DNA of 60,236 bases, the filler included, from Hausera hauseri (taxonomy: Eukaryota), in NCBI GenBank assembly GCA_046269625.1. It is 12 parts of 12 records of this genome, joined end to end, with 100 filler letters (N's around TTAATTAATTAA, not from the genome) between each part and the next. Parts side by side here need not be neighbours in the genome. Positions count along the whole stretch, not along the records: positions 4,338 to 9,405 come from JBJURY010346046.1; 11 more parts are not named here. One strand, given 5' to 3'. The notes under the pieces are model-generated. The model saw only the letters and a list, made by a program, of their open reading frames with translations. It ran no database searches and was not told the origin of the DNA. Below are positions 53-44,883 of the stretch, piece by piece (the first letter of the stretch is position 1; each line of letters starts with the position of its first letter). The translations under genes were made by a program, and so were the position numbers.

Positions 53-552
53 TCATGGATTTTTTAAGATTGATTTCTGCGTCCTCGTCGACTGCACGGT
101 AGTCGAAATGCTATTGACATGCCCAGAAATGTCGCCAGTGGTGCCGTTCCTTAAACACTTCTCACTGCAGTCAACCAATAAATTATAACGCGATAAAAAA
201 TCGTATCCTAGCATTGCCGTCTGGACGTAAGCGACTGTGAACGTCCAGTGGAAAGGTGAAAGAAATTTTGGTAAGATGAAAAATAATTTAGCCATGCCAA
301 AAATGTGCAGCGGTTGGACTGAAGTGATGTATAAGGATTTAATTTTGAATGGAGAATTTTGTACAGGAGAGGTTTGTGGTAATAAGGAAATTGCTGCACC
401 TGTATCGACGAGGAAGTCAACAGATTGCGTTGTAGGAGCGGTGATTGCAGCCTTTAGAGTAAAGACAGCAAAGGAGGCGTGTCGGCGTTTAGAAAGTGAA
501 GTAGTGACTTTGCCAGAGTTTGCCGTGACTTCTGGCGGCGAAGTTAGTTTTT
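53..552 (-). pseudogene. pol: Ty3/Gypsy (CsRn1/Kabuki-like) aspartic protease, start of pol, copy A
   Basis: Open -1 frame from the gag stop reads KKLTSPPEV...VDFLVDTGAAISLLP...MLGYDFLSRYNLLVDC (DTG and LGxDFL motifs). Homologous to 48900-49382. Confidence 0.9.
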
Positions 553-1646
553 TGAAAACGGGGAACCTGAGCGATTGTTAGAAACGAAAGTTGTGCGTTC
601 GTCATCTGTATGGTGAAATTTGTTTTTAAACATAAAACCTGGAATGCATTTGCTTGCATTATGTCTGAATTTTGCATGATATATGCAAATTATGTTATCA
701 GAGTGTAGATTAGATGAATAATAGCTACACCCTAAACAGCATTTATGTGCTTTGTTGTTAAATTTGTTGTGGTAATAACATATGAATGACCGTGTTGGTG
801 ACGGTGCCAGATTTCTGGAAGGACAACGTGTTCGATGAGGCGCAGAAGCATTCCGTCGGTGTAAGGAAAGGTCATTCAGTTTATCGTTGATGGTCTTGAT
901 TGTTTGTTGTAGTGCTGCATTTTCGGCGCGCACTTGGTTCAATTGGTGCTCGATGGATGCATGTCCTTGATCATCATCATTCATAATAGCGGCTGATATG
1001 ATAGGTTGTGATAGGATTTGTAAGACTTCGTGTGCTTTATCTGCCAATTCAGCCAGTTTATCTAACGCTATAGAATCTTCAACAACAGTGAGTTAAGCCA
1101 TAATCTGAATGGGTAAGGCATTGAGGAAATATCGTCGAAGTAGGTCCGGATTGTGTTCCTTCGTGATTTTCCTAAAGTACGTAAGTGGGCCAACGTGGTG
1201 AATAGAAAATCGCTGGGTTTTTGTACCCCATTGCGTTTTCATTAAAGAAACACTGCATTATTGAATCAAATGATGGTTCTGTCTGTTTTAACACAGCATC
1301 GAACAATTGGGTATAAGGATCAGAGTGTTGAAAGATGTCTAGTAAGTTGTGGATTGAGGTCTTTATGGAATTTGGTAAAAGGTAAAGTAGATTATGGGCT
1401 TTGGATAGCAAGTCTGTAATACCATTGGACTGTAACCAGAGTTGATGGAAGTGGAGCCAGGTTTTGCTAGACTTCTTATTGTCTATAAAGTATTTAGTGC
1501 AATGTGGTGTAGTACTGATAGGATTTTTGTGAGAAGAATTTGTATCGGTTGAAGTAGCTGGATGGTTTGATTTTGGGTAGTAGAGAATGGATTTGGGTTT
1601 TGTGGTCACCTTATCGTTAGTGTCACTAGGTTGGTGGAGAAATCAT
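544..1646 (-). pseudogene. gag: Gypsy gag (CsRn1-like, two CHCC-type knuckles), frameshifted, copy A
   Basis: WLHFHQLWLQSNGITD...DPYTQLFDAVLK gag core. C-terminal CYYHNKFNNKAHKCCLGC and CIYHAKFRHNASKCIPG match C-x2-H-x9-C-x3-C. Colinear with 47824-48909. Confidence 0.85.
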
Positions 1647-1860
1647 ACCGATTCTAGGATTGACGTGTATACATAGATGGTAATGTGAGGCCATGATGTG
1701 TAGAACGGCAGTTATAATGAAACTGTTGTAAGTCAGGTAGAAATCAGTGTAGGCGGTGGTATTATGAGATTGTATAATTGCAATGACTCCATACGTTGTG
1801 TGACATGTACGGTTTGTATTAAGTTATTATTGACATAAAGGGAGAATGAAAACGGCGATG
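1647..1860 (-). pseudogene. Degenerate ubiquitin-like leader upstream of gag, copy A
   Basis: With one frameshift reads FSFSLYVNNNLIQTVHVTQRMESLQLYNLI...DFYLTYNSFII...LCIHVNPRIG|MISPP. Aligns to the RIRGG|M leader of copy B. Confidence 0.55.
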
Positions 1861-2056
1861 ATAGATGGCAAGCTGGGTAGAGTGGTATCTCAACATGGTA
1901 GTACGAAGTTAAGAAGGTTACTCTGCGATAATGTGCCTCGATTCTACTTCGTCTCATTACAGATCCATTAATTTCCATAGATAGTTCGGTATTAGGTTTG
2001 GTGGGTTTGGCAGGACAAAGTCTGAGTGGTGAGTAATTAACAATGTCACAAGGTGG

Positions 2057-4061
2057 CTAAACCATTTTATTAATTTCTATGTAGTCATCGTCGAATTCAT
2101 GAATTCCTACGAGTGTCAAATACTTCAGAAGGTGAAAGCGTAGTTTACCAATTTTGCCCAATGAAGCTAATTTAAATTTCAATGCAGAATGAGTAACTTT
2201 GTCAACAGTAGCAAGATATCTCGAAAAACTATGTCGTGGACAAAGAATAAAGTGAAGTAACTGTCGAATAGGATAGACGAAATTTATGATCTGAGGAATA
2301 AAGTAAAGGGGAGGTGCTTTGCTGGTATGATCTAGAAATCTAAGGTCAGCATAAGTCATTCCAGAATAATAGCAAAATTTGTCACCAAAAAACGCCTTCG
2401 CTAGACAAGTTATATTTTAAAAATCTGAGGCGATAGAAAACGGAAGGAATCATAAAAAATAAAGAAAAAAGGGATACTGCCAAAATGGGCTGGTAGTAAA
2501 TTCAAAGAAGTCGAAGCAGTGACTAGAAACAGTGATAACCAAACTTTGGCTATCGCAAATTTTATTTATACCGGAGTAAATATTAATGGGAATTGTACAA
2601 GAATTGTTTAAGAACGCCAAACAACTATAATAGATACGAATGAAATTGACAACTTTGCCAAAAAATGTTTCAAAGAACATCGGTATGATAATATAAGTCG
2701 TCCCATGTAAAAACGTGTATACAGTCAACAAAGGCAACGACTTGATTGTCGGCAATAGTAATTTATCTCGCCATTTTAAATCGAGTGTATTACCCACAAC
2801 TCTCAAAAGAGTCATACAGCATATTGAAAGCAAACCTGTTAAGTATTGGGTACAATTATTTTGCGCTGAGCTGATTGTCGTGAAATTACGATTCAAAATG
2901 AGCATGAAAAGAAATATTATTATAATGAGATAAATAACACTATGCCAAAAGCATTGCGCATCGGATATTTCCTTACACACAAAATTAAGAAAAGTTTGAA
3001 CAATCTGAAATTGCCATTTCAAAAAAATGTTGTATGGTACTTATCAGGGCCTGATAGAGTTTGAATCTCAAATCCTCGTCAATTTGAATACTGAAAAGTG
3101 AGAGTAAATCAGCAATCTCAGATTTATCTATATCTGAAGGGAGTAACCTAAAAATGGCAGATATACTACTTTTGGGTGGTGATGTTGTGTCAACAATTGC
3201 CTTAACAGTAGAATACGAAAAAAATGAGTAAAATATATCGTTAGTAAAAGGCATATTAAAAAATATTTGCCGATCAAACTATGTATAACGGTAAATCTCA
3301 CTTCGTCTTGCACAGGATTCTCTACGGTTGTCAGTATCCTGTTGCCTTGTGAAAACTGTAAATCGATTTCTTTGATTCGGTCGTCCTACGAGAGGTCTGT
3401 CCGATTTCTTTCGAAAAAGTTAGATGGAGTAACGTCTGACCGTTGTAAAGTCGAATACCGAGTTTGACTGATCGGAAAGTCTGAATACGAAATAGGGAGT
3501 CCATGTTTTTAGAAAGCAGTGAGAAAATATTCAGTGGCACTTCGATATAACGATCAATAAATGTAAACCTAAATGTTGGACAGAGAGATGTTTGTTTGAA
3601 TAGCTTAGATGCATCTTTGTCTGTATTGCCGTATGACCAGTTCTGTTTGTTAAGCCATATATAGTAACTGAATTCGATTCCTCTTTTAATATTCAATAAT
3701 TTGTCAGTTATTAAATGCTCAGTAACGTTGTTCAGTGCTTCTTTGGCACGTTTCAAAAGGTGTTCGTTATTTTCAAACGAGAAATTTTTCCAATTCGTGT
3801 TACAGTGTTAGAATGAATCGAAAGTGATTTCAAGATAGGGATGTAAAAGTTCTAATTCATTTGTATTTGAAGACTCCATTTTTTGGATCAAAAGGAAATG
3901 TTATCTCCATTGATTCATTATCCAGGTTATACACTTTGTACGTATCACCAGCACCAATCACATATTCCGTTTCCACATTATTCAGTGAAATATCCGATAT
4001 ATTGAAACATTTCAACAACGGCCTCTTTTTCTGTGGAGATTTTTGGTACAAGCCACGGCAA
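2057..4061 (-). pseudogene. Long intronless degraded ORF chain of unknown identity (viral or TE cargo relic?)
   Basis: Successive protein-like minus-strand ORFs (3857-4061, 3331-3756, 2985-3313, 2450-3022, 2057-2359) linked by frameshifts. No recognisable motif. Confidence 0.4.
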
Positions 4062-4237
4062 ATGTACAACTGTAAGAGCCGATAGTGAACAACATAGCTG
4101 GACTTACGCTCATGTGTAAGCAACAATTTCTTTACTTTTGAACCAGGTGGACATTGGTTCATTGGAGCAAGAGGCAGTTGATCTAACTTATCATGTTTGT
4201 CTGCTGGAATGCTCAAGTCAACTTCAAAGACTAAACC
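4062..4237 (-). mobile_element. Polinton/adintovirus-type pPolB fragment
   Basis: FEVDLSIPADKHDKLDQLPLAP...KLLLTHERKSSYVVHYRLLQLY, near-identical to 55690-55870 and similar to 36445-36605. Confidence 0.9.
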
Positions 4238-4337
4238 NNNNNNNNNNNNNNNNNNNNNNNNNNNNNNNNNNNNNNNNNNNNTTAATTAATTAANNNNNNN
4301 NNNNNNNNNNNNNNNNNNNNNNNNNNNNNNNNNNNNN
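4238..4337. other. Artificial contig linker (44N-TTAATTAATTAA-44N). Same linker at 9406, 13555, 20567, 25239, 29415, 33928, 39792, 46076, 50382, 55586
   Basis: Identical 100-nt spacer with stops in all six frames, present 11 times. Confidence 0.99.
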
Positions 4338-4391
4338 TTAATTAATACATTAGGAAGTAAAGTCAAAATCAGCTTTCACGGATGGAACAAC

Positions 4392-4408
4392 TGGTGCTGA
4401 TACCCGTG
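4392..4408 (+). promoter_or_regulatory. Putative primer-binding site (tRNA-Phe-like) after an LTR end
   Basis: ...GGAACA AC TGGTGCTGATACCCGTG resembles the tRNA-Phe PBS TGGTGCCGAAACCCGGG and lies immediately upstream of a gag start (TTRKGTHY). Confidence 0.55.
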
Positions 4409-4444
4409 AAGAGTAAATTTGACCTTTAGATAACAGAAAAAACT

Positions 4445-5518
4445 TGAAGATTACGACTAGGAAAGGCACGCACTACCAAGTAAACGGAGAAGAAAGTCAG
4501 ACTTTTGGATTAGAGTTTTGAATAATTTAAGTGACGAAGTAAACGAAATGTCATCAAACCACGACACAAATACGATAGAGCAAGTCGCACAGTCTAAAGC
4601 TGACTACACCTTACACATGAAGAAGTTCTCAGGTAAAGATGTGTAAGATGTCGTTATGGAGTACGAGGGGTACTCTAAAAGCTTTGGTTGGAATGACAAA
4701 CAATGAATGGAAAGGCGACCTTTCCATTTAAAATGGACAGCCCTTACGATATACTTCCAGATGTCTGAAGAAGACAAAAAGGATTGGAAAGCCGTCAAAG
4801 AAAAGTTGCCACAAAAGTTTCTAGTTATACGAAGAAGGCAACAAAAGGATGATACAGTCCAAGATTTTGACTGCGCACTGTAATGGTAGCAGCAAGGGCA
4901 TACCCTGACGCAAAGATAAGAAGTAACGCATTGTTAACCCAGTTCCAATACGGACTGGAAAAAAAGTTAAGAACGATAATCCTGCAAGCAGACTCACCTA
5001 CATTCCAGGAAGCCATATGGAAGGCACGTAAAGCCAAACGAGATGCGGAAATATATAGGTGGAATAAGCCTAAAAGTTTTAACGGTAAGTACGACAATCG
5101 AAAGAATAATAGCGCACAGAAGTACGAACGATACTACAGAAATCGAAGTCCTTCACAGACATCAGCCACAGAAGCTGAACCAGACGTAGAGAAGGCAGTA
5201 TATTTTAAGTTAAAAAATGATCGTGAAAAGTGGACCTATAAGAAATACCTTAGCAAAGATGGAAGAACGTTATCTAGTATAGATTCTGAAGGAAAATTAA
5301 AATGTTTTAATTGTATTAAATATGGTAACATTGCAAAAGCATGTAGATCACATAAACGGGAAACCATAAGTCTAAGGACAATATATAAAGCAGCACCTTC
5401 AATATTGAAATTAATAGATAACAAATTATCAACGATTAAATTAAATGAAATCCTATTCCAACTATTATTATTATTCTCTACAAAAAATAACAAGAACCAT
5501 GCTATCCAAAGCAGGTGA
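4445..5518 (+). pseudogene. gag: Ty3/Gypsy gag with CCHC zinc knuckle
   Basis: KFSG...FGWND...WKAVKEKL...AARAYPD...QFQYGL...TFQEAI capsid motifs, plus CFNCIKYGNIAKAC knuckle. Stops and frameshifts in the 5' half. Confidence 0.85.
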
Positions 5519-6405
5519 GGATGAAAAAGGAAGAAATGAGTCAATAAGGATAACGTTGAAAGAAGGAAATCAAGATATGAGAATTATCACAATGAATGAA
5601 ACTGATGACATACAGACGTTACGAGAAAAGGTACAAGAAGTATCATTCTACAAAGAAAAAGTGTATGATTGAGTTTCTATGGAATGACATTATATAGTTA
5701 CGATAAATTGCTAAGGATCGGATGTAGAAGTGAAAGTTATAATCAGATTACCATAAGTCAAGTTCACCCTGATACACCAACAGAAGAAACAATAGGTAAT
5801 ATAATAAGAGAACTAAAGCCACCTGAAGAAGGAATACACCCGCTAGGTGACACCCAAGATGTTACGGTTCAAATGAAAGCAAAAAGAGGAAGGCCTAAGG
5901 AAACGAGGATAAGTGATATTCGTATTAAACGAGATAGAAATGAAGAGAGAACGGATAAAACACCAGAATCTATAGATATAGATCCATCAGTGCGAACGTT
6001 ATTAGCAAAGTTACATACGTCATTTGCATCTTTCGATATGCACGTAACAAAACCTGATGAGTTATTCCAAACTTTACGTAACAGCATGCTACGAATCAGT
6101 AGACATTTTTACGAAAACATGGGTGAAGAAAGAATTAACGAACAGCATGAACAAGACAATTTAGCAAAATGATTGCTAGTGGAATCACAAGAGACAAAGT
6201 GTTAACAACTATTGCCTACCTACTTTATAAGCTAATTGTTATTAATTATCGAACAGAAAATTTGGAAGAAATCGAACGAAACAGAAAAATAGGGATTAAA
6301 GTCCTCCGAGACAAGTTAGAAAACTGGGTTCAGTGTAGAGGAGGTTGGATATCAAGTTTAATGAACGTTAGGGCAAGACATAGTTACCTAATTATTAGTT
6401 ATTAG
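5499..6405 (+). pseudogene. Ubiquitin-like domain + Bcl-2-family (Bax/Bak/Bok-like) protein, split by two 1-nt deletions
   Basis: ACCATG start. UBL-like SIRITLKEGNQDMRIITMNETDDIQTLREKVQE...YDLSFYGMTL...LLRIGC. BH1-like MIASGITRDKVLTTIAY and BH2 LRDKLENWVQCRGGW. ORFs 5445-5672, 5669-6172 and 6169-6405 join by restoring one T and one A. Confidence 0.75.
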
Positions 6406-6449
6406 CTGAAATTTTAAAAAATCTGCTATACACAGTATTATAAAACATT

Positions 6450-7790
6450 TTGACAAAATTCTTGGAATAGGAATTTTTTAACATTCAAGAAGGGTTGTAT
6501 GCATATATATTTGCATAAGTTACTACCACATGCAAAAACTAGAAAATTAATCTTTTATTATTTACCATAAAGTAAAAAAAAACGTTTTCAAATGCAGTTA
6601 AAATGTCAGACATCATAAGGATCAACTTGAAGACCATTGTGGAGCACACAGAAGTGCATACGGCGAAATGAGCGTCAATTAATAGCAGCTAAGGTGTCAG
6701 GAGAAATGTCTGAAAATGCGTTCCTGATCACATTCTTCAATTTCTCGACATTTCCAGCCTTCTGGGCGGCGATTTTTGGTTTAATGATTCCCCACTGAGC
6801 ATTATTACATGAGGTCAGGTCGGGCTTCGAGCGGACCAAGGAATTGTCCCGAACTTCCGTACCCATCTGTCCGGGATGTTCCGACAAAGAACTTCCTCCT
6901 GAATTTCGCAATATGCGCTGGTACACCGTCCTGCTGAAAGTGGGACTTAAACAATATTTCTTTTGCTTGCAAGTCAGGAATAAATTTATTGCGAAGCAAG
7001 GTGATTTAAAAATCTGCTGTAATGCGACCATAAATTAAATATGGGCCAATGAGATGTTTCGTTGAAATGGCTGCCCACCATTACAGATGGGGATATTGTA
7101 TGATTTGTTCCCCCAAGTATAGATTTTCTTTTGACCAGAATGATAGCTGCACAGCTCATCTGCTCTCAGCATAAATAGCATATTCATATGAAAACACAGC
7201 TTCTCTCGCCTGTTGCTGTTATCGTACTTTGCCAAAATGCGCTAGCAGCCACCAATTCTGGTTTGGTGATCATCCTCGGAGATATTGGACCTTTGTAGAT
7301 TTCCAGTTTACATACCCCAGGTCTCTTGTCAATGCATAATGTAATGTTGAACGAGGTATTTCAAGTTCGTTAGACCTCCTTCTGAAGAGAGCATTGGGTT
7401 TTCTTCAACGTTCTGTTGAATGCCGTCATGCTCATCGCCTCGCTTATCTGGTAGCCCTGACCGATTTTTTTCACGAATACTGCCTCTGGTGAACAACTTC
7501 TCTTTCCAATTAGCAATAACTCTAGAGTGAGTAGGCTCTGCATTGGATTTTTCTCGGAGTTTGGCTTTCAATGCTCGGACTGAATCAATGGTCTTACCGC
7601 ATTCGTGATAGCAGCAGGCTGCAAGAATTCTGTACTGAAATGTGTATTTACTTATGTCACTCATTCGAAATTTTGAGGAAGAAAATATATACAAAAGCTC
7701 AGTATAACAAATTGCAAAAAATATATATTTCGTTCAGTGAGACTGCCTCCGGTGTTTCTTACTCAGAATTTTCCAAGAATCTTGGACACC
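6450..7790 (-). mobile_element. Degraded Tc1/mariner transposon
   Basis: N-terminal HTH region ...WKEKLFTRGSIREKNRSG; catalytic FQQDGVPAH and degenerate (W)PARSPDL...WGIIK. Imperfect terminal inverted repeat CAAAATTCTTGGAA / TTCCAAGAATCTTGG. Confidence 0.85.
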
Positions 7791-7899
7791 ATTTAGCCGA
7801 TTTCTCGAAAAAGAAGAAAGTGATGATCTTTCATAATCAGAAGGAAGCCCTAGATATGGAAATAAAATTATTCGCTAATACAATCAAACCAAATAATGA

Positions 7900-9405
7900 C
7901 AATGGACGATCAGCAAGTGCAGTAGTACAAATCGGAGGAAGATAAAAGCGCTTTAGTATCGCCGCCCGGGTGAGCTAAGAAAGGAAGACAGGTACATACA
8001 TATTGTGTTGCTTTTAAAAGCCGAATGCGAAAATATGAACTAACTGCAACAGGACAAAGTGTATTACAGGATTTTCTGGATTCCATTTTAAACGAATCGA
8101 TTATTATGTTGGAAAATAGCCGAAGAAAGCTCAAGGTTATCAAAGTGAATTTAAGTTTGAAGCCATATATACCAACGTAGATGGTGAGGATGCAGAGAGC
8201 ATTTGAAACCAAAAATAAGCTAATTTTGGAACAAAATAGTATGGGTGAATTTTTGGGAAATGAGTTCAAACACCTCATACTTGAAACATAGGAATGTCAA
8301 AAAAACAACGCTTGGACACTTTCGGTGATGAAAAACGTAATCATACGAATATATAAGTATTCCCCATGGAGAGGAAGTTCTTACATTAAGTTACCTGATT
8401 GGATTAAAATAAAAAGGTATGCGTTAATGTGAAGAACAGTGACAAATGTTGTTTCAAATATACGATTTCATTAAAATTCATAAATCAGAATGTTCAAAGG
8501 GAAGAATTTTACAGAGACCTTCGGCATGACTATGATTTCTCATGTGTCATCTTTCCGTCATCATTTCATGCTACTGAGAAATTTGAAAAAATATATAATA
8601 TATTGATCAATTTATTTGCGGTAGACGATGCACGGAAAGTGTATACGCTCAAAGTATACAAAATGAAAAACCAACTCATAGGGATTTGCTTTTATTAAAC
8701 GAAATGGACAACAATCATTACGTTTGAATCAAGCGTTTTACATGGATGATGAAAAAAATCGTTACAAACCATCATGGAAACATTGAAGTGTGGAAAAGAT
8801 GTTTGATACACTTCAATAATGATACAGATCAAATAAAAATACAGGAATACAAGCGGTAATTCAATGAATAGGAATGCTTACGATTTGAATTTCCAAAGGA
8901 GAATTAAATGTTTAAGGAGTATGAAAAAATTCTCAGAGTATAAATAATCATATATTGTGACTTTGAAGCAATATTGAATCCTGTACACGGATGTTATCAA
9001 AATCCTCAGCAGTTTCATACAGCAGCATGCTAATTGCATGAACTGTATTCATTTTGCATATATACAAAAAGATTTCATAAAAATAATTTGTGTATAGAGG
9101 TCCATAAGCGGCTTTTGTATTTATGAAAAAATTGGAGAATATGGTAAATGCAGTTCAAAATATAAAACAACAACGTGTGGTCATTACATCTGCTGAAGAA
9201 ACTGAATAGAAAAATACCACCAACTAATACATATTCAGTAATAGCTTTGCTTTAGTAATTCCAAATGCAGGGGTAATTGTCATATCACGGTTAATTTCAG
9301 AGGAGAGGCATGCAATTCATGCGGCTTACGATGTCGAACAACCAATTCCTGTTATTTTTCACAATTTAAGTGGGAATGATTCTTATTTCATTATGAAAGA
9401 ATTAG
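7900..9405 (+). mobile_element. Degraded pPolB 5' half (Polinton/adintovirus type)
   Basis: WTLSV...YSPWRGSSYIKLPDWIK, KNSDKCCFKY, CHIT...GEACNSC and PVIFHNLSGND motifs across frameshifts. Confidence 0.8.
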
Positions 9406-9505
9406 NNNNNNNNNNNNNNNNNNNNNNNNNNNNNNNNNNNNNNNNNNNNTTAATTAATTAANNNNNNNNNNNNNNNNNNNNNNNNNNNNNNNNNNNNNNN
9501 NNNNN

Positions 9506-10684
9506 TTCGGCAAGTCGCTGTTTTCGTGTGAGCTTTTGCCAGTGTCAAAGACAGGATTTCTGGCCATCACCGACGATATTACTCTACCAGACATCGACTA
9601 CGATGACATCAGCTGTGACCAGGACTACCTGGACAGATTGATTTAAGCAATACGTAGTGGCGCCATCAGTAACAGTCTCCTACCTGAGAAGACAGGACCA
9701 CTGTCACAGGCAAGGTGTGTGACAACAACCAGCAGAGTTTGCCGTTTGTATGTGTCGACAGAAGAACCGAGTCCAGAACTCTACTCCCTCACCGATGTGG
9801 TTCGATATCAAGTGTCGTCCACGATGCACAGATGGTCCGCGTCACTTTCTAGCATCAATCAAGTTGAAGACAACGCTCTCTGATGACATCAAGAAAATCG
9901 TTTGGACCGTCATTCAGAAAAAGGTCTACTGGATCCAAGAAGAGAACGTCCTGTTGGCAATGTAGTACATGGAAACTTTTCGACTCGTCAAGCCGCAATC
10001 GACAGAATTAAATCAATCCGACAATCTCCGTCATGCAATCAGCAACAAGTCAGACAGTTCGTGTGTAGTAATGTCAACGAATGTGTCAATATACTACAAG
10101 ATCTACGTCCACCAGAAGTTATCTGTGAACCTCCGCTCATCATGAAGTTGTCTATTGAACAGCTGGAAAGATTCGCTGAACAACCGATTATCGTCGAGAT
10201 ACCATGCCGTTCACAGGGTGTTGAACTTTGTGTGAAAATAGTGACAGAGTCGTCTTCTCACGTTTATGGTATTGAGTTGAAAAACGGTTATATTAGAGCA
10301 AGACTGAAGTCCAGGGAACTAATACCTTCTTTTAAGTCTAAGCAGGACTTTCACGTGTAAACGGACATTATGTGAACTGTTTGCAGTTGGTATGAAAAAT
10401 ATTGTAACTAACTTTTCCTGCACTGTAATACGTTATGGAGTTTTAAATAAATATTCAACAATTCATTTTAAGCAATTCTTGTTTTATTTGCAGTAAAACT
10501 CAAGTAAAACCGGGGAGAATATTTTGAAAAATGATGAAAAACAGCAATTTGTGGTATTTTCGAAGTCAAACAGGGGATGTACCGTTTGTTTTATCAATAG
10601 ATAAAGTGCATTTTTAAAATCAGCATGGTTAAGCTAATAAATCCCCTGATGTGCCTCAAAATTGCCCACTTCACTACACTCTAA
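9506..10684 (+). mobile_element. hAT-superfamily (hATm-like) transposase 3' part with right terminus
   Basis: SCDQDYL...RLYVS...PMWFDIK...ENVLLAM...EPPL...IPCRSQGVELCVKIVTESS...GYIR...SRELIPSFKSKQDF. Terminus ...CACTCTAA (reverse complement TTAGAGTG). Confidence 0.75.
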
Positions 10685-11979
10685 CATATATGGTACATAT
10701 GATATTGGTAAAAATCTGTTTTCATATATTACTCCATTTACAGAAATATCCGCGAGCTTTTAAATACTTTTTTTCAAACCTTTCTTCACGTTTTGACTAC
10801 CAATTATTATCCTCAAATTATCTTCATATTTGGGATATTTTGAAATTTCTGTATTGTACGTTGGTTGGCGTTTTTCTGGTACGTTATAAAAATCACACTA
10901 AAACTAATTCTAAACTGATTATAAGTAAACCGTAAGCATTACCTTTATTTCATCACCAGATAATAAAGTACAAGACGGAGTTTCTCTCATTCTTTTGTTT
11001 ATTTAAATGTTTTTTGATTTTCACAATTTGTTTACAACCTTTCTGCTCATATAAAAAGATGACTTTAACCTTAAATGACCTTGGCCTTAAGTGGCTTAAT
11101 GTGAGGGAGTAAGGAATAAGTACAAATTCCGATTCACCCCTTTTCAATTGACTTTTTTTTTAACGCATCGATTTAATTAAAGAGGAGGTGGGTATGGTTT
11201 GTCCAGCTTGGTTTATAATTGAATAATTGTGATTGATAATTGATTTAGAAAGAAAAGGGGGTGTTTCCTAAATCCTTTTGATTGAGTTTTCTTGGGCCCA
11301 TATTGTTTATTTGTTTATTTTATTGCTTTGGGTTGTCGAAGCCTCGTTGGGTCATTTGAAACGATTATTGATTTTAAACGATGGTTGATTTGAAACATAA
11401 ACTGATCAAAAGGTAAGGACAATAAATTTTAGCAAACAAAAATCGATTTCTAATCCCATACTGATTAAAAGGAATTACCAACAGATTCAATATTGCTATT
11501 AAATGTTTTACAAACGTTTACATGCCTGAATCGAAATCCCAATAATCGAACCCATGGTCAATGTCCGAGGATAACTCACACAGCTAAAAATATACGCATT
11601 AATGTTGTTCGAGGACTATTGAAAAAGGCCTATTTTGATACCATTCTTGATAATTCCCTGTTAGTTTATTTTGTTATTCACTTGAAACTTTACGCGGTCG
11701 AGAATGTATTTAGCATATTTACTGATTCCTTTAAATAAGGTAATCATGGTGCCGTACTGATATAAAGTCGGTCGATTTAACCCCCTTTTCAAATTATTGT
11801 ACTTTTACCTCTAATTGCTATTAACCGAATTTATTGATGTTAACAACGTCCATGTTTTTCTCCATGATCAATCAAAACAAAACCAGTCGTTGAATGTCAA
11901 ATATCTAAAGATAAGGCCATGAGCCTTAGGAATAATAATTAGAAAAGGAGTAGAACATACAAAAATTAATAACACTCAC

Positions 11980-12285
11980 AGAAACTCCCATAAAATTTGT
12001 TTCGTTCATAGCTTTATGTAATTCTTCATAAACCAAATTCGGTTCATCTTGATATTTGAAATCCATTATTGACAAGCCATTTCTTTTCAGTCGTTTTTCT
12101 GTCTTGTCCAACGCAATTGTAATAGCCCATACGGCATCATACGCTAATGGGGCTTCAGGAAAACCGGGAATTTTCGTAACTTGACTAAGCCGTTCAGCAA
12201 TTATATCTTCGGACAATTGACCCGGCTCTTTTCTCCATTCATTTTTCAACATTTCAATCAGTCGGATTTTGAATTCAGCTGCTGT
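11980..12285 (-). CDS. GABBR1: GABA-B receptor subunit 1, internal exon (venus flytrap domain)
   Basis: GFPEAPLAYDAVWAITIALDKT...MNETNFMGVS. Boundaries ttttag|ACA and TCT|gtgagt, 306 nt, phase 0. Confidence 0.9.
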
Positions 12286-12329
12286 CTAAAAATGGGTTCA
12301 CCAAATAAGTCAGTACTCTATTGATTTAC

Positions 12330-12593
12330 AATTCCAGAAAATGTTCGGACTGAATCGTTATTCCACATAACACTTTCAGTGGTAATGTGACCCTCGACAG
12401 TCATTTTCATTTGTTCAGCAGTACAGTTAATACCTTCTTTTTCGAGGTTGGATTTCCACCAATCATCCGGATACCAACCTATTATGATCCAAATTACTTT
12501 CGGTCCATACAAGCCTTGATGATATGCTTCACAAAAGACTTTTCGAGCCAACTTTTCATAGAACAAACCAACGATAATCCGTGCGTCAACATT
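12330..12593 (-). CDS. GABBR1: GABA-B receptor subunit 1, internal exon
   Basis: NVDARIIVGLFYEKLARKVFCEAY..GLYGPKVIWIIIGWYPDDWW..INCT. Boundaries cag|AAT and ATT|gtaaat, 264 nt, then a 44-nt intron to the next exon. Confidence 0.92.
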
Positions 12594-13221
12594 CTGAAGG
12601 CAAAACCAAATACGATTAAATATTATGAAAATAAATTTTAGGAATACTGCTTCGATCGTCTACTAGAGATTTGGATAATAATAGATTATCAAACTATGAA
12701 ACGTACTACAAAGTGATTAAAGATCTTGATTAAGATTTTGTATGACAAAAATACAATTTTTTCAATTTCTTAAACCGGGTGTATTTTTTATAAAAAATAG
12801 TCGTGCAAAAACAAAATTTTATGCTGATTAATAATGAAAATTGTTCTTCTATTTCATCCTAATATGCGGAGTAATTTTGAAAATTCATAAAATTTTCGTT
12901 TTTTTCAACCAACATTCCAGTGTCTTTCATGTTATGCGAAAGTACAACGAATTCGCATTGAAAAATGTGAAATAACATAATATTTCAAAGCTCTCTTTGT
13001 GTAATTTTCTTTTACCATGTAAGATATTTTCCCATATTATAACTTAGCCTAAAATTTTGTACTTGTATAACTAAATTTCATAACAGCCCTGACTAGCCGT
13101 AAAGGAATATCTCCGCCGTGGCTACAAAATTTTTCGACATATTAAAAGAGGGAAAGAGAGAGAAGACAAATCGGCAAAGTCTATGCAATGTTTTAATATG
13201 ATTAAACACCAACATCGGAGG

Positions 13222-16213: not shown

Positions 16214-19200
16214 AAATGTTCGCAATATCCCATGTACTGCGGATTTCGCATACATGAGGTGGATCAGTGCCATGAACAGATGGAGAAATATTACAACACA
16301 GGAGGAAAGGCCACGTATTTGTGATCGGCGTGTAATATTTCAACCCACTGTCTATACCCCGATTTTTATTAAATGCACAAGCATCGTTTTTGTCCGTTTA
16401 TTCGGTCTAGGAAGATGATGGTTGAGTATTGCCCTACATACCCACACTACTGCAATAATAAAGTGCACAATGTTAGTGGTTGTCATAGTGCAATGGAGCA
16501 GTACTCTGGCATCACAACGCTGCACAAAAAAGGGCTTTGTTCAATAGTTGTTGAAATCAACTATGCACAATTTTATAATATGCACAAGGACCATTTAAAG
16601 CGGTTTAAGCGGTCGAAAAAACAACTAGTTATGGACTCAACCAGCAGCAGCATCCTGTCAACAACTAGTAGGAAACGACGATAATCAGAAAGAGTACCAA
16701 GCTACAGCTGCAACAGAAACAGCACCAAACACAACAACAACAAGAACAGTATCAACAGGAAGCCAATATTCCCAATATTGCAGTCAAGTACGATCTGAAC
16801 AGATCGTACGTGGACATAAAAGTGAACATGTCGGCGGAAACAACAACAACGCAATTGAGACGTTCCGCAAAATATGCGCCACCGGTTGGAATCAGAAGTG
16901 AAATTTCAAGACAACTGCAAAGTGCAATATAATGCACTGGCAAAATTTGAAAATATGGAAGGTGACAAGAAGCAATGGTACCTGTCACGTCGAGCCGAAC
17001 CGTATTCCAACGATTTTATTGTTGATGTAGGCGAAAAGCGCGAGGCAAAAATCGTCAACTACACGGAAAAGGGTAGTGGATGGCGAATTTTAAAAATTGT
17101 CACCCTCGGCTTTATCATAACAAAGTCGAGTGACATAGTATATTTGTCCAGGCAATCATTCATACGGACACCTGCAGCTCTGAAGCAGTCTCTGGCGGTA
17201 GTGAATGTTTTCTTTACAGCATTCTGGCGGTATTAAAACATGACAAAGTGGTCATAAAACATGCTAATCGTCCAAATCAATATCGGCAGTATTTTTCCGA
17301 ATTGGATTTCGATGAAAGCTGGATGCCGAAGAAACTAAAAACTATATCGGCCTTCGAACGGTGTAATTCGACACAGGCAATCAACGCTTTCCGGTACAAC
17401 TCAATAGTTGCAATACCGGTGAAGAAATTTATAAGAATGTCCATGTGGATATAATCTATCGTAGTCGGAACCTAAATGGCCGCCAAATAAGTATGTTGCT
17501 ATTGGAGCATAAGGAAATTACGGCTGTTTCGGTGACAAATCTAGACAGACTGTTGAACATGGAACGTGACCATTTCAAAAAACGGATACAATGTAAATGG
17601 TGTCCTGTATGTCTGCACCGATTCAGATCAGAAACAACATGGGAGAAACATGTAATTCTGCAGACAAAATACGTCAGGAACCACAATGTATGTCATGCCC
17701 GTCAAAAAGGAGCTCAGATTCAGTCACCAGTCGAAAACAGACAGTCCGGCATGTGTTATATGCCGATATCGAAGCTATCTTACCACGGAACGACATATAT
17801 GACCAAAAACATGTTTCAATCGCCGTTGGTATGTTGGTTGTCCCAATAAAAGCCGCAGGTCAACCGCAATATTATGTTTTCCACGGATGGAATTGTGGAC
17901 GTGATTTCTTGCAGCAGTTTCAAACCATAGTGGAAACTGAGATCGCACCATGGTATTTGGACAGATGAAGATGAACGCCTAACGTGTGCAGTCACAGATG
18001 AATGTTACCTGTGCCACAAAATATTACCGTTTTATGCACAGGAACGTCTCGTACCGGATCACCATCATTTTACTGGTCGATATGTCGGAGGAGCATGTAA
18101 TTCATGCAATTTGGCAAGGCGTGTGCGGCCATTCTTATTGGTGGTATTTCATAACTTAAGGGGTTATGATTGTCACCATATTTTGAAATTGTCCATAAGC
18201 TGGTATAAACCGGTTCCAGGTACTCTTCCTTGAATCATTGCAATTTCTCAATGAATCATTGGCAAACCTGGTAAATGCCTTGCCAGATGTGCCGCTAGCA
18301 TTGACTCAATTCCCTGTGCATATAGCGCGTAGCAAAGGCATATTCCCGTATGACTTTGCGATATCGCACGCGTGGCTGGAGACAACAGACGAATTACCAC
18401 CGCAGTTGCCCGGTATCATAGAAGAATATCACAGAGCGCAGTTTTGGGCAAAGCTCGGCTGCAGAAACTTGTTGGAGTACATACTTCACTATCTGAAATT
18501 GAATGCGTAACTGTTAGCCGATGAATCTAAACAAAACTACATAGTTCATTGGCGTCTGTTGCAATTTTACATGGAGTTTGGTTTACGTGTCACACAGCTG
18601 CATCGCGCAATCCGATTTGATCAGGCTCCTATATTCAAGCCGTACATAAGTCGGAATTCGGAAAACAAGCTGCAACTTGTACGAAGTTTGAAAAAGACTA
18701 CTACGAACTGAAAAACAATTCGCTCTACGGAAAAACAGTAGAGAATCTGAAAAAGCGGCTCAATGTAAGCCTGTGCAATAGCGAAAAGCAGTTGGTCACG
18801 TACACGAGCAAGGCGCAGTTTAGGGGCTCAATGCATATTGCCTATTGATTGGTTGCCGTGCTTTTAAACAGGGAAAAAATAGTACTGGACCGGCCAAGTT
18901 ATAGGATAAGTGTCATTGGATTTGAATAAGTTTCGGATGTATGATCTGCAGTATCGAGATTTGGCACGATACTGGCAAGTGTTTGGCGGCAGCGGCGAAC
19001 GCAGGATCAATATAATTGCCGGTGACAGTTTTTTCTTGGAACTGGAAAACGTCAATCGACAATAACTACTGCGGCAAGTGACGGCAGACGGGTTACTGGA
19101 CACGTCCAATTACTCACAGAATCATCCATTGTACAGCAACGCCATCACAAACAAAATCGGCTTCAAGGATGAAAGTGAAGGTCGGGTTCAGTATCGGGAA

Positions 19201-24405: not shown

Positions 24406-25238
24406 ATGGTAAGTCTTTTCTTATTTGTTGTCATCATATAATTTTGTTTCTAGATGTGCAAATTATACCAAAAATGTATGGCTCCAACACATGAGCCAGA
24501 AACCTGTCACAATACCATGAGGATCTATTATGGTCACAAATTCAATCGAATACTTTACCATATATGCCCTGGATGTGAGACTGTATGCCAGGACGAGTAC
24601 ATGCAGTTATAAGGACCATAAGGCCGACTTTGCATCAAAGTCAAAGATTATATTTAATGAGAATAGGCCAGCTGCACAGTCCACAGTCCAGTCTGCATTC
24701 CAATCCGCAGTCCAGTCCTCAGTCCCATCCACAAGAGTAAAACGTCCATCAGTTCCATCATGCTCAATAGGTGTAGCGGTTCCACCAAAAAGCCTAAGAC
24801 ACAGGCCAGTTAATGCTTCAGCATTAAATAAAGCCCGAAAATACGTCATTGATGCAGCTGGACAAACAACCATCATGGAATTCCTGGAATATCCAAAGGA
24901 AGAAACAGAGGGCATTCTCCAGAACAACATGACTAAGCTCAAGGCCCTTAAAGTTAATATGAAAGTCGAGGCCACATATGTCAATGTGGAAGCTGAGATA
25001 TCCGCTAGGGCCTTCAAGACCAAAAATACGCCTATATTGGAAAGCACAAATATAGCTGAACGGCTGCATGAAAAACATATGAAGCTGATCCGTGAAGCTG
25101 ATAAGAGCCAAAGTAAAAAGAGTGGATGGACTCTGGCAGGCATCAAGAGACTGATTATATTTGTGCACAGATATTCCCCCATGCGAGGCAGTTCATATAT
25201 ACAGCTTCCGGAATGGATTCGACAGAAAAATGCATGTA
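24406..25238 (+). mobile_element. pPolB 5' end with ATG micro-exon and 45-nt intron
   Basis: ATG|gtaagt...ctag|ATGTGC, then a Cys/His domain, then KSGWTLAGIKRL..YSPMRGSSYIQLPEWIRQKNAC, the typical Polinton PolB N-region. Confidence 0.85.
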
Positions 25239-34199: not shown

Positions 34200-37100
34200 A
34201 AATCCCAAATGGATTCTGTGAAAAAGCTACGACTTAATGTTCAAACTATGATCGTTAATAATTATGTAAACTTTCATTTGATGTTTCGCCTGACCAACTC
34301 GTTTCTACTCGACCACCTGAGGAAATTCTGAATTCTTTAGATATGTACATTTCTCGGTTTTCTTCGTGTAAGATTCAATATGGACTTGAGATTCTGTTCG
34401 CGAATCCTGAAGGTGGCTTTAAGGAGGCATATATTTCACATCCAGCTGTCCCTTATGAGCAGGCTTACCCACAATCTGTAGCTGATACCTTGCGTGAGCA
34501 AGTTGAGAATATTGCCAAAATGGGTAGTGGTTGGAAGGTAGCGAAAATTCGGAAATATTCCTATCATATAGAACAATTCCACTACCATATCTATCTGGAA
34601 AATCCTATCTACCAACGCCTGAGGCTTTAAATTTTTCAGTCAGTTATTAACGTGCAGAATGGGGATAGTTTGTTTCCTGTACTCTATTCTTGCAGGGACC
34701 AAATATTCGTCTATCCACAATAATAATCAGTTAGTAATTACATTCCTTATTTAAGCGAGTTGATATTCTGCAGAAGATATGCTTATGAAAATATGCAACA
34801 TAAGTAAATTTGTAAGGCAGAATACACAGATGTCAGTTAACGTTTTCTTGTTTAACGATGAGGATGATGTGGTTTTGATGAGGATATAGTGAAAAATCCA
34901 TTCGTTCATATTTTGTATAAAAGCAAAAATCCTAATGGTTCTGTAGTAAACTTGTTGATTTTAGAAAATAATGACAAGTTTCACTATGTTGCTGTCCCTA
35001 ATCTTAAGCGGTTATTAAATATGGACAGTAAGAAAACCCGTATTCAGTGTAAACATTGGTGTGAAAAATGTTTGCATGGATTTAGGCTTGATACGGCTTA
35101 CACTAGGCATTTGCCAATGTGCATGTCTTCTTCGAAGTGCACGACGTTGCACAAAATGCAGGAAAATAAGTTTTGCGAGTTTAATGACTGAGCCAAATCT
35201 ATAAATCCTCCTTTCGTCATGTATGCTGACTTTGAATCTGTTCTCTCTCCTAATGAAAGTCAAGAATATTAATTTGCCTGATGCGGCTGGTCTTTTGTTA
35301 GTAGCACTAACAGGTATTGAATGTGGGAAATTTGTAGGTGAAAATTCCATAGTTGAGTTTCTGATCTGTTTAGAGGAAATTGTCAAGAAACTTGTTTATC
35401 CGTGGTACGAAAATGCCAAAAAGCCAATAATCCCGTTAACAACAGCTGAATAGTTTCAGTTTAAAAACGCTACACAATGTTACCTTTGCCATGAACAGGA
35501 TACTACACTTGTTCGAAATCACTGTCACGTTACAGGTAAATACTTAGGTCCAGCTTCTAATCGGTGTAATTTGGCTCATAAGATAAGGTATAATTTGCCT
35601 GTTATTTTTCATAATTTGCGTGGATATGATCTCCATCATATTTTAAAACACGCACTAAGTAAATTTGCTACTTGGAATTTGAGTATTATTCCGCAAACAG
35701 CAGAGAAATTTTTAACCATGCAGGCAAATATACAGTGTTCATATAAAAAGTTAGTTTCTATTCGATTTCTAGACTCCTTGCAGTTTCTACCTGCTTCACT
35801 TAAGACTTTGGCTTCCGACTTAGATAGGTATCCCTTTAGAGAGTCGGCTTTTCTTTATGGCATTATTAAGGGAAAAGGTATTTTCCATATACTGCAGCCA
35901 AATCTTTCACTGACTTGCAGTCTAGTAAGGAGTTGCCACCAAAATGGGATGCAGTTAGTTATACCGATTATGAGGAAGCACAACTAATTTATTCAAAATA
36001 TAGTTGTAACTCTCTTTTGGACTATATGCTAATATATATAAAGCTTGACGTATACTTGTTAGGCGATATTTTTGAACCGTTCAGAAAGGAGGTTAAGATG
36101 CAGGATGAATTAGAGGCTACTAACTTTGTATCAATTCCAGGTTTAAGTTGGACAACAGCGCTGAAATTTAGTCCCTGTAAAATAGAGTTAATACAGGATC
36201 CTGATATGTACAATTTCTTTCAATCTGGTACTCGCAGTGGCATGAATTTTGTTAATAAGCATAGGGTTGTCTCCGATGAAAGCACCAGTCTTATGTATAT
36301 AGGTTTAAATAATTTATACGTCTGGGCTTTATCGCAACCTCTGACATTTGCGAATTTGGTATGGATATATGATGAAAATAAATTAACTAGCCTGATTGAA
36401 CAGTTGTCCTATATTGACTGTGTTAAGGAAAAAGAGGGTTTAATATTTGAAGTTGATGTGAGCATTCCGGCTGACAAACATGATAGGACCAACTGCCTCT
36501 AGCTCCAATTAATAAGTGTCCTCCTGACTCGAAAGTTAAGAAATTGCTGCTTACACATGAGTCTAAAACCAACTATGTTGTGCACTATCGCCTCTTACAG
36601 TTGTACATGGAGTTAGACGCTGTAGTTGAGAAGGTACATCGAGCCGTTGAGTTTGACCAGGGTTATATCTTTAAGGATTACATCAATCTAAATACTGCAA
36701 AGAGGGCTGAAGCAAATAATCCTTTTGAAAAGGACTTTTTAAGCTTAAAAACAACAGTTTGTATGAGAAAACATTTGAAAATCTGCTGAACAGGTCAAAC
36801 CTGAGACTGTATAATAATTCTAAAAAGCTAATTACATATGCTAGTAAGGCCCAATTTAAAGAGAGCAGTATTATAGCCGATGATCTGGTTGCCGTTCTCC
36901 TCGATAAAGACATAGTCACCTTAGATAGACCACCATACATCGGTTAGGCCGTACCTGATCTATCCAAGTTACGGATGTATGAGGTAAATTATATTGAGTT
37001 GGAGACATATAGGCTTCAGTTTAATTGCGAGTTAAATATTGTTGCTGGTGACACAGACAGTTTTTTCATTGAATACAATGCTGTGGACTTAAAATTGCAA

Positions 37101-39891: not shown

Positions 39892-41865
39892 TAAAATATC
39901 CGATTGTATAGAACCTCAGAATCAAAAAGAGTTAAAACATTGGTGAGGCCTATGTGGATATTATGCCACTTACGTACCAGATAATTCGAAAATAAACGCA
40001 CCACTATATCGACTACTCAAAAAAGGGATTAAGTGGAGATGGACGGAATTGGAACAAAAAGCATTCGACGAAATAAAGAAAGTTTTTACAAGCGAACCAG
40101 TTTTAAAATGCTATGATTTTAACCTACCATTCATCATTAAAACAGATGCAAGTAAAGAAGGTATAGTATACGAATTAGCTCAGAAACGAGAAGATGAAGA
40201 ACTAGAACATCCAATAGCTTATGGAGGACGCTCGTTAAAGAAGGCAGAAAAGAATTATTTGGTTACCGAATTAGAAACGTTAGCCGTAAAAGAAGCACTA
40301 CGACACTTTAATATCTATGTCTATGGACAAAAGATTATAATAGTGACCGACCACAAAGCAGTCACAACATTGAAAGGACAAGCTAATAACCCAACATGTA
40401 GATTAAACCGTTGGATCAAAGAAATCTCACGATATAACTTCGAATTCCAATACAAACCAGGTAATAAACACGTTGACCCCGACGCGCTATCAAGGTTAAA
40501 GACAAAAACCAGTGGGATTTCCACGGTGAAGAAAACGCAGCTAAAACAAATAATTGAACGTCAAAGGACTTTAACCCTGGATAAAACGATCAGGATCACC
40601 GCAGAACAAGCTAAAGGTAAAGTTACTCAGCAAATTGTTGAGTTTGCACAAAACGGCGAAATTCCCAAAGGACGACAACTAAAGAAGCACCTGCAGAAAC
40701 ATAGACATAAATATTGCGCATCAAACCAAGATAATATTCTATGTTATGAACGAAAGGGGAGAAAACTAATAGTTATCCCAAAAGGATTATGTGTCGAACT
40801 ACTCATGGCCGAACATGATTCATATTTAGCTGGACACATGTCTTGGAAAAAGACCTTGGAAAGGATATTAAATAAATACTATTGGCCAAGCATTTATATT
40901 AATGTAAAGAATTGGGTAGGTGCTTGCAAAGTTTGCGCGACAAAGCAAAGGAAAACGAAAGGGTACGTAGCAGAACTAAAACCCATAAACGTATCGGACA
41001 GGCCCACGCAAGCTATATCTATGGATATAGTAAGAATTTTGCCTAAAACTCACAAAAATAACAAATATATTCTGACATGCGTGGATCGATTAACGCATTT
41101 CGTCGAGCTGGTGGCACTATTAGATCAAAAGGCAGAAACTTTTGCCAACGCAGTAATAAGGAAAATTATCTGCAGGTACGGACCACCAGAACAAATCTTA
41201 ACGGATAGAGGAAGGAACTTCACAAGTGAATTATTCGAAAAAATTACAAAGATATTCGAAATCTAACGATTAACCACTACCGCGTACCACACCCAATGTA
41301 ATGAAATGGTCGAACAAATGAACGCAACAGTCATTCGCATACTATCAACAGTAGTGACCAAAGATCAGAAGGATTGGGGCGAATTCCTAGAATGGACACC
41401 GTTCGCGATTAATACAACTCCATATCCAGCAACAGGGTTTACACCGTTCTTTATGATGTACGGACGGGAAGCAATCTTACCCACAGATCTAGGAATGACA
41501 CCATACGAAAATAACCTCGAGGATCTAGAACAAATTTTTGCCGAAGTCTTACAGACAAGATTGCAAGTGTTGGGAAGTTGCAAAAACATTATCACTCGAA
41601 TTCCAGGAACAATTTAAAAAACAATAAGATAAAAAGACTAATCCCCATGATCTCGAAAAGGAAAATTGGGATTATATACATTACTCAGTCGCGAAAAAAG
41701 GTACGTCCTTGAAATTAACACGTACCAGAAGAGGACCATATGAAATCATTCGCACAACGCCAACCACGGTCTGTTAACAAAAACGGAAAACGGACGTCGT
41801 ATCAATCCAAAGAGTAGTTAAAACAGATATATGACCAGCTAAACACTACAATCTAAGACCGCACG
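39892..41865 (+). mobile_element. pol: Ty3/Gypsy pol: RNase H and integrase, family X copy 1
   Basis: KTDAS..ELE..TDH..DALSRL; zinc finger HDSYLAGH..CKVC; core MDIV..TDRGRNF..(E); GPY module; ends YNLRP. Confidence 0.95.
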
Positions 41866-43260
41866 AAAACAAGATCTCGTCGATTGTCACTAGACCAGTA
41901 TCTTACGCACAGATAACAGTAGCCTTATCGTTGATTGCTGTCCTAACGTCTAAGGCTAACGCCCAATGGTGGGTCGATGAAAACTCGTTGAGCGATATAT
42001 ATGGAATCAGGAAAATCGCGTTAAAACCTTCACCGCCCAAGGAGAAAACTCCAGAATAAAAATCAGAACAAAAAGACGAAAAATTTTTACGAGCAGTAAA
42101 ATTAGATTATTTTTCGCCAGAAGCCCCATGTGTCGGGTTTAGGATACCATGACCATATGAGGGGTAAATCCGGATACTATTCCATGACCTATTAAGCCAA
42201 GCCGAGTCCTATTGTAAATTCGAACCAGAAGACGATATAATTTGCTGCAACGTAGAGTACGGACACTCTTACGCTCTCAGCTATCGTTCATATTTGCCAA
42301 ACTGTAATAATGTACACGCCGAAATAAATCTGAATTCACACTTTGTTATACCACGAATTTATGGAGACTATCTTAATATAGAGCTAGAAGACATGCTCCA
42401 GTCCGTCGATCCATTAAAACTGATGCTAAAAGAAGATATAGCTAGTATAACGAAAATTTCAAAGGACAAATGTATCCAAATAAACACAAAAGGACGGTTA
42501 ACTAAAAAACGAGTAATCACGGTTCAATTCATGAGAGAAGACAAAGCAACTTATAATCAACAATACTGTCAAATCGACGCCGAAAGGCCGAATAAATGGT
42601 GTAAGTTACCTCAGAGATATAAATATAAAATTCGGTTAGACTTATACGAAGTTCAGCCGAACCAGCCGAGTATTTACTTAGGAAGTTATCAATTGGAAAA
42701 TCCAATTTGGGGAATTCCACCTGAAATGACAACAAGCAGAATTACTTCCACCAAATTCCTCCAAACGACTGGATCACCTCAGGAGCTAGAAATGATTCCT
42801 ATAAAATATTGGACACAACAATATGAAATAAAGTTCGTTGCCGAAAAAGTACTGAATTACGACGTAGAAATAAGTTGCCGAACATTACACACTAATCAGA
42901 AAGTGACACTGGCTAAAGGAAGCCATTGAATCAAATGCACCTACTTAAAACCCAGAACAAACTACATAATACAGATAGGTGCGAAGAATAAACAAAGCAG
43001 AACGTTTACAGTACGGACCCTAAACGAGATTGGTTTAACGAAACCACTAATTAACAAAAAACGGAGGACGAAACTACGGCTACCTCTAAAACAAAAAACT
43101 AACTAAATGGACAACTTTGTCATTGATATCAATTATTGGATCGTCAACGTTCGCTCTTATAACTTTAGTTGCGTTTTTTAGAATTGTTACCAAAACTGTT
43201 GTAATAAACGTCATAAAATCACCGAGAGGGAATTAAGGGTGATGGTAACGCAGAGTAAAT
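41866..43260 (+). pseudogene. env-position type-I membrane protein with FN3-like ectodomain, copy 1
   Basis: Signal peptide ITVALSLIAVLTSKANA, Cys-containing beta-rich ectodomain, LKPRTNYIIQIGAKN, TM TTLSLISIIGSSTFALITLVAFF. In frame with the integrase tail. Confidence 0.7.
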
Positions 43261-43379
43261 TTAATGATGGAGTAACCTGACAATTACTGGTTGGGTTATT
43301 CCACCATCTAACAAAGAATTGGTTCAAATTTAGAACAGTGCTTTGTTATAGGATCGACCCTTATTTTTTATTTTTTAGA

Positions 43380-44314: not shown

Positions 44315-44871
44315 ATTTTGTTGGGAAAGGTATCTTGGGGGTTAAACATTAAGGGCAAAATAGAATCAGACTTAGTCTGACCCTGAAAACAGACTTTTTC
44401 TATTTTCTCTCATTTTTCTTCTTTTCCTATCTGATGCGGGAAAGAGAAAGATGATTTCCTTTCCTCTCTGCCCCCAAATACAAAATTTTCTTATTTTCAT
44501 TCTCGCACCTCACTTAGCTGCAATCAGCTATAAATAGCGTTATAGAATGAAACAAAAAATGCACAAAATTTTAACCAAGATTTTTCCGAGAATTTGTGAT
44601 TAGATGCAATAATTTTATTGATGGATTTTGTTGATGATTTCAAAGGTTGAAGTACTGTAAGTCGATTCATTAATTTGTTTATTTCAATATAATTTAGTGT
44701 ATTTCTTGTTACATTTGTTCTAAGTAAGATTATAACCACAGCCAGCAGAGGGCTGTAGGTAAGTAACCATCTCCTTCAACTTCCGGCAAGAATTTACTAA
44801 CATCTACATACAATTTAATTAATTATTATTTAAAGAATTAGAGACCTTTGGTATTGCGAGAGTGAAACATT

Positions 44872-44883
44872 TGGCGCCCGAAC
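44872..44883 (+). promoter_or_regulatory. tRNA-Lys primer-binding site after an LTR end
   Basis: ...GTGAAACA TT TGGCGCCCGAAC: 12-nt match to the canonical tRNA-Lys(UUU) PBS TGGCGCCCGAACAGGGAC. Confidence 0.75.

Follow-up and report, generated by a model that had tools for sequence, protein, structure and literature searches.

Burro (GYPSM1) elements of planarians are giant Gypsy-like LTR elements, present in thousands of copies with decayed fragments being common, and the description in PMC6431247 gives them a gag, two or three zinc knuckles, a MATH domain, a Ubi2/SUMO-like domain and a BCL-2 domain, followed in frame by a mononegavirus-like env that precedes the protease. According to that source, which also cites Jurka (2007), BCL2-like motifs in Burro were noted by Grohme et al. 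(2018). The BIR/RING region (IAP) of Burro1 is reported to protect stem cells from apoptosis (Lee et al., 2026, Dev Cell, as cited in PMC13465017), and an expansion of Burro in Dugesiidae and Geoplanidae is described in PMC13465017. In the literature consulted, we found neither a functional assay of the Bcl-2 domain of Burro, which is annotated only, nor a Bcl-2-bearing LTR element reported from any host other than planarians; Grohme et al. (2018) and Lee et al. (2026) may cover compact or non-planarian relatives. The portions of PMC11410931, PMC13238120 and PMC8532177 at hand added nothing on the Bcl-2 domain, and a word search of the available text of PMC13524379, which deals with env-bearing Gypsy elements, returned no mention of Burro, ubiquitin or apoptosis.

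We analyzed a 60,236-nucleotide stretch of DNA from Hausera hauseri (the window), which consists of 12 contigs of 4-7 kb chained by N spacers; the finding lies at the start of the contig at 4338-9405. Searching 1.84 billion representatives with the last coding piece of this locus returned a single protein (E 5.6e-17), P0001, an unnamed ENA protein of 1130 aa that forms a single-member cluster. P0001 reads in one frame through gag, a knuckle, a ubiquitin-like domain, an RGRP linker, a Bcl-2-like domain, a hydrophobic segment and env, and it is collinear with the window copy from gag through the helical domain, with 30-43% identity by domain. As described for Burro, an N-terminal gag is followed in order by a ubiquitin-like (Ubi2/SUMO-like) domain, a BCL2-like domain and env, read here from P0001, the collinearity of the window copy and weak Pfam matches. 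The ubiquitin-like domain directly precedes the Bcl-2-like one in P0001 and, by collinearity, in the window copy, and env stands in frame behind the latter in P0001 (E 6e-19), whereas the window copy ends before env. In contrast to the Burro description, the window copy and P0001 each have one knuckle rather than two or three, only ~60 codons (window copy) or ~245 residues (P0001) separate the knuckle from the ubiquitin-like domain, and P0001 and the window pieces gave no match to MATH, BIR, RING or ankyrin domains, of which divergent forms could be missed. Since the knuckle count and extra domains differ from those described, we did not class the locus as a Burro member, the comparison being one of domain descriptions only. 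By this analogy, the feature resembles the gag-UBL-BCL2-env part of Burro and is not a new kind of gene; the version in the window and P0001 appears to be a compact variant of the known layout, with one knuckle and no MATH domain seen. The sequence-only reading, which knew of no described retrotransposon-borne Bcl-2, was mistaken on this point, as one is already in print for planarian Burro, in which SUMO-like, BCL2-like and env parts follow one another within the gag polyprotein (PMC6431247).

Layout of the locus and its relative

Judged by its sequence, the segment at 4392-6405 derives from a Gypsy-type LTR element and is a decayed copy truncated at its 3' end, in which a PBS-like site is followed by a broken gag, a degenerate zinc knuckle and three out-of-frame pieces (Table 1). 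The PBS-like site was found where it had been proposed, and we take it to resemble a tRNA-Phe site; no tRNA gene was found in the window. The remainder of the 5' LTR is missing because the window is made of joined contigs and the contig edge cuts there, and no second copy of the candidate LTR end was found within the window. The gag frame opens with an ATG at 4548, closes with a stop at 5516-5518 and shows 41-42% identity to the P0001 gag (tblastn), which matches the Drosophila Arc2 (dArc2) capsid (E 0.0068). A gag capsid domain and a zinc knuckle, as expected of a Gypsy element, are both present. The earlier description of a gag with a CCHC knuckle holds for the gag and the single knuckle as such; however, the gag contains two stop codons (4644 and 4704) and an 11-residue gap and changes frame near 4881-4885, and the knuckle, degenerate in this copy, reads C-x2-C-x4-N-x4-C, with Asn in place of the expected His.

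Table 1. Features of the window copy (window positions, nt) and Pfam matches of P0001 (residues).
Feature	Position	Strand	Basis
Contig start, candidate last ~50 nt of 5' LTR	4338-4391	+	position before PBS-like site; LTR identity presumed
PBS-like 18-mer, starts TGG	4392-4409	+	sequence; ~50 nt after contig start
Decayed gag: capsid domain, RS-rich linker, knuckle, ~55-codon tail	4548-5518	+	tblastn to P0001 21-182
Single degenerate zinc knuckle	5303-5344	+	translation; aligns to P0001 knuckle, which passes Pfam zf-CCHC
Gag and module frames overlap (+1)	5499-5518	+	20 nt; ATG 5499 in fair context
Three coding pieces, different frames	5499-5669, 5669-6169, 6151-6402	+	collinear with P0001 458-760
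Likely ubiquitin-like domain, frame change near 5669	5529-5771	+	26/88 identities in alignment with P0001 458-545
KRGRPK, AT-hook-like or nuclear-signal-like basic motif (presumed)	5882-5899	+	RGRPK kept in P0001
Likely Bcl-2-like helical domain, frame change near 6169	5981-6384	+	59/137 residues identical to P0001 (43%)
BH1-like motif	6178-6219	+	sequence
BH2-like motif, W-x3-RGGW	6304-6348	+	sequence
Tc1/mariner-superfamily transposon remnant (presumed)	about 6454-7784	-	transposase-like motifs in translation; directly behind truncation
P0001, Pfam zf-CCHC	197-212		E 2.5e-4
P0001, Pfam ubiquitin	473-522		E 0.031
P0001, Pfam Bcl-2	651-748		E 0.055 in full-length scan
P0001, Pfam Monjiviricetes fusion glycoprotein (env)	793-980		E 6e-19

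The three coding pieces matched P0001 458-760 with a tblastn sum E of 1.7e-39, and the module, read with X at its two breaks, scored 441 against P0001 455-765, as compared with 77 for the best of 500 shuffles. Since P0001 reads as one open frame, the two frame changes within the module were attributed to decay of the window copy. Besides this single open frame, P0001 differs from the window copy in its longer region between knuckle and ubiquitin-like domain and in running on into env. Its strongest hydrophobic window (784-802) lies ~30 residues after BH2, between BH2 and env. P0001 is itself probably incomplete, because its env matches only the first ~190 of 653 Pfam positions; its Pfam matches to PDH_C (0.025) and UPF0242 (2.1) were taken as chance. 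Between P0001 and the window copy, the Bcl-2-like part is as conserved (43%) as gag (41-42%) and above the linker (27%). Further searches for relatives returned none with window 5669-6169 among longer proteins, only P0001 itself with P0001 380-790, none with P0001 455-770 among shorter proteins, none in viral contigs, metagenome contigs or phages, and no usable match in the ESM Atlas.

Copies in a public run, the junction and the 3' end

A public run, X1, contains the stretch (69% of its words) and is possibly the source sample; no RNA data set containing the stretch was listed. When X1 contigs were placed on 4345-7900 at 80% likeness, 2109 fitted, 66 of them at ≥99%, 134 at 95-99%, 628 at 90-95% and 1281 below 90%. 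The bulk (1909/2109) were thus less than 95% alike to the window copy, mostly 80-95%. The summed depth, which is not a copy number, was 328-11,493 in all 15 bins over 4583-6367 (gag plus module), 55-80 in the two bins before 4583 and 16 in the bin after 6367; contigs matching the window copy almost exactly had a depth of 6-8. The 2109 contigs, all from one run, correspond to an interspersed element of many copies, as expected of Gypsy, and many divergent contigs cover gag, junction and module. These sequence data support the view that the module, ubiquitin-like plus Bcl-2-like, is a family feature of the Gypsy-type element.

The assembly is short and fragmented, which could favor a misassembly, or one retrocopied host ubiquitin-Bcl-2 gene, beside a gag remnant. 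However, a single-copy retrocopy was excluded because X1 contigs pile up over gag and module. In addition, the junction is covered by many divergent contigs, the independent protein P0001 shows the same gag linkage, and gag and module are equally A-rich (41-42% A). We rejected retrocopy and misassembly on these grounds and regard either as extremely improbable, unless X1 and P0001 should both be artefacts. The proposal that a Gypsy lineage carries a Bcl-2 accessory gene was borne out insofar as the module is family-wide, but not as to a separate gene of ~300 aa: since P0001, collinear with the window copy through the helical domain, reads in one frame from gag to env, the module likely belongs to a gag-env polyprotein rather than forming a stand-alone gene.

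An arrangement in which the module occupies a separate frame behind gag, entered through its own ATG at 5499 or through +1 frameshifting programmed at the gag stop, seems rather unlikely. The ACCATG named earlier as the start of the ORF is present, in fair context, where the gag and module frames overlap by 20 nt; the gag tail is unlike that of P0001, no indel at the junction appeared among the 12 indel rows listed out of 59, and the accessory domains of Burro are described as either sub-domains or separate ORFs (PMC6431247). On the other hand, P0001 has gag and module in a single frame throughout, the window copy contains at least six other breaks, which makes one more unremarkable, and the indel count extends to these 12 of 59 rows, from short contigs that break at variant sites. 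Contigs of other copies do span the junction (13 at 5505, which lies at most 72 letters inside their ends; 5515 is also covered). No similarity was detectable between the knuckle-to-ubiquitin-like stretches of the window copy and P0001, and the in-frame junction of gag and module is therefore established for P0001 only. The overlap in the window copy may be a private frameshift, a programmed shift or a separate start.

The repaired ORF of ~300 aa stands as to its three pieces, collinear with P0001, and its breaks near 5669 and 6169, but its stop at 6403 is, from the sequence comparison, probably the point where the window copy was cut and not a natural end. Similarity to P0001 fades at about 6385-6393, just before this stop, and the summed contig depth in X1 drops from 814 to 16 at 6368. 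The stop was rejected as a natural end, as P0001 continues in frame into the hydrophobic segment and env. The remainder of the contig (4338-9405) contains no protease or RT, in agreement with the earlier reading, and no env. The Tc1 insertion reported behind the ORF is present as a minus-strand remnant, which we assign by its motifs to the Tc1/mariner superfamily; it shows an inverted match of 13/14 nt between 6454-6467 and 7771-7784, and the two ORFs scanned in it gave no Pfam match.

The window holds several other elements. Two related Gypsy pol regions (73-82% alike), at 39892-46075 (+) and 50482-55585 (-), contain RNase H and integrase. Behind each lies an ORF that begins like a signal peptide and has several Cys; as this ORF is unlike the P0001 env, the pol-bearing contigs were rejected as the missing 3' half of the window copy. 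Behind the pol of 39892-46075 there are a weak match to a purple-acid-phosphatase N-terminal domain (E 0.006) and a transmembrane-like stretch (43090-43233), and this region also contains a 216-aa ORF of no named family and, at 43970-44311, an ORF resembling an exonuclease (RNase_T, E 0.067). A second gag at 57184-60236 (+) (Retrotrans_gag, E 6e-4; 37.5% to the P0001 gag) represents a further family whose gag frame is extended: behind it lie >1.6 kb of coding pieces, charged and helical-looking, in which neither a protease nor a Pfam match was found. Yet another retroelement family, which includes a protease-like ORF (Pfam E 0.007), occurs twice, at 56-1642 (-) and 48850-49393, the copies being 82% alike. 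Decayed DNA polymerase B-like pieces at 2450-4237, 8300-9400, 16859-17968, 24521-25237, 34262-36502 and 55688-56377 are presumably of Polinton/Maverick type, by their motifs, and exon-like receptor ORFs at 11929-12659 (-), with a Pfam ANF_receptor match, are taken to be GABA-B-type and point to an animal as host.

The ubiquitin-like and Bcl-2-like parts

The N-terminal beta-grasp domain postulated earlier is likely ubiquitin-like, as P0001 473-522 weakly matched Pfam ubiquitin PF00240 (E 0.031, 14.5 bits, below the 25.4-bit cut-off), although the window pieces of this part alone gave no Pfam match. Its C-terminal Gly-Gly is absent, and ordinary cleavage by deubiquitinases is therefore unlikely. 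The KRGRPK linker, also postulated, is present, and the stretch around the retained RGRPK is only 15/56 identical to P0001.

The C-terminal piece (6151-6402) matched Pfam PF00452 with E 0.0023 and 18.9 bits, which was the only match with E <0.1 among the six window pieces scanned. When the P0001 domain was scanned alone, it matched the same family with E 0.0046 and 17.9 bits over model positions 5-100 of 100; both scores are below the gathering cut-off of 31.4 bits. The C-terminal piece also matched TIGR00865 bcl-2 (E 0.087). In a PDB sequence search with this piece, 51 of the 57 matches at E up to 10 were Bcl-xL, Bax or Bak, a redundant set with a best E of 0.31; rows of Clostridial toxin A (4/57, E 0.3) were taken as chance. 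PDB profile searches with two- and three-row alignments of the copies retrieved no Bcl-2 structure. AlphaFold models of the P0001 helical domain, alone and with two window pieces, reached a pLDDT of 38-39, too poor for a fold search, because alignment depth was lacking, and Foldseek PDB and VIA-align wide searches with these models gave generic helical matches only, with no Bcl-2 near the top.

The cellular Bcl-2 family, to which Bok also belongs, has viral mimics in large DNA viruses, and its usual BH1 motif contains NWGR. The domain described here is like those of Bcl-xL, Bax and Bak in its BH2-like WxxxxGGW and in its helix spacing over the Pfam model. Unlike them, it falls below the Pfam cut-off, does not keep the BH1 Trp-Gly-Arg, is embedded in a polyprotein and has, in the window copy, no tail anchor of its own. 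The claimed BH1 and BH2 matches were accordingly upheld in part: BH2 is clear, with W-x3-RGGW kept, but in both the window copy and P0001 the usual Trp and Gly are missing from the BH1-like motif, and Lys replaces Arg. The spacing over the whole Pfam model is kept in P0001. From these sequence features, whose support for Bcl-2 is weak though consistent, the helical domain very likely has a Bcl-2 fold; normal BH3-binding function is graded lower, as an altered BH1 Trp/Gly/Arg argues against it.

It is improbable that the Bcl-2 and ubiquitin resemblances are both due to chance and that the element simply carries an unnamed helical accessory domain. Every score is below its cut-off, unrelated window pieces gave Pfam matches at similar values (E 0.006-0.013) that may themselves be chance, and the Atlas gave no match. 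However, the window copy and P0001, 43% alike, both score Bcl-2 as their best Pfam family, one of them over 96/100 positions, and the succession of ubiquitin-like, Bcl-2-like and env is that published for Burro, an agreement not expected by chance.

Possible roles of the module

Taken together, we consider it fairly probable that the locus represents a dead copy, truncated at its 3' end, of a Gypsy element repeated many times, whose first frame would encode gag, knuckle, ubiquitin-like domain, linker and Bcl-2-like domain followed, as in P0001, by the hydrophobic segment and env, and whose module would be cut free and damp cell death. The gag-to-env polyprotein would be cut by the protease of the element and, in front of env, by the host signal peptidase. 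The hydrophobic segment, as the env leader into the ER, could keep the Bcl-2-like module attached to the ER membrane as a tail anchor. By analogy with the Burro1 IAP, the membrane-bound module would make the stem or germ cell that hosts replication of the element less prone to die. Like the Burro1 B-IAP element, this is a Gypsy element with a domain for cell-death control, but the tested cargo there is a BIR/RING caspase inhibitor, as described in PMC13465017, and here it is a predicted Bcl-2-like domain.

Given the altered BH1, the module may instead act on another pathway. A Bcl-2 fold that does not block apoptosis by BH3 binding, and that serves in innate signaling, on which several poxvirus Bcl-2-fold proteins act, in particle assembly or in env traffic at the membrane, is a less likely though quite possible alternative. 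Consistent with this, BH1 Trp/Gly/Arg are altered in both the window copy and P0001, the domain directly precedes env in P0001, and the basic RGRP motif is retained beside it. Nevertheless, BH2 (W-x3-RGGW) and the whole-model Pfam spacing are kept, and Burro elements are described as rich in apoptosis-related cargo (PMC6431247), which speaks against this alternative.

Retrotransposon-borne Bcl-2 is, as an idea, already known, and the published descriptions of Burro show that retroelements can carry cell-death-control cargo, its IAP being reported to help host stem cells. A small multi-copy element that keeps the ubiquitin-like domain, the Bcl-2-like domain and env points to this trio as a conserved core and would be a simpler object for testing, and if the host is not a planarian, the range of such elements would be widened. 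As a tentative suggestion from these sequences, which we hold to be doubtful at present, a compact and very successful env-bearing Gypsy lineage outside planarians may carry the UBL/Bcl-2 module between gag and env, with the env leader serving as the Bcl-2 tail anchor. If this is true, invertebrate endogenous retroviruses would have acquired the module as an anti-death device either long ago or on repeated occasions, and it would not be an oddity of Burro.
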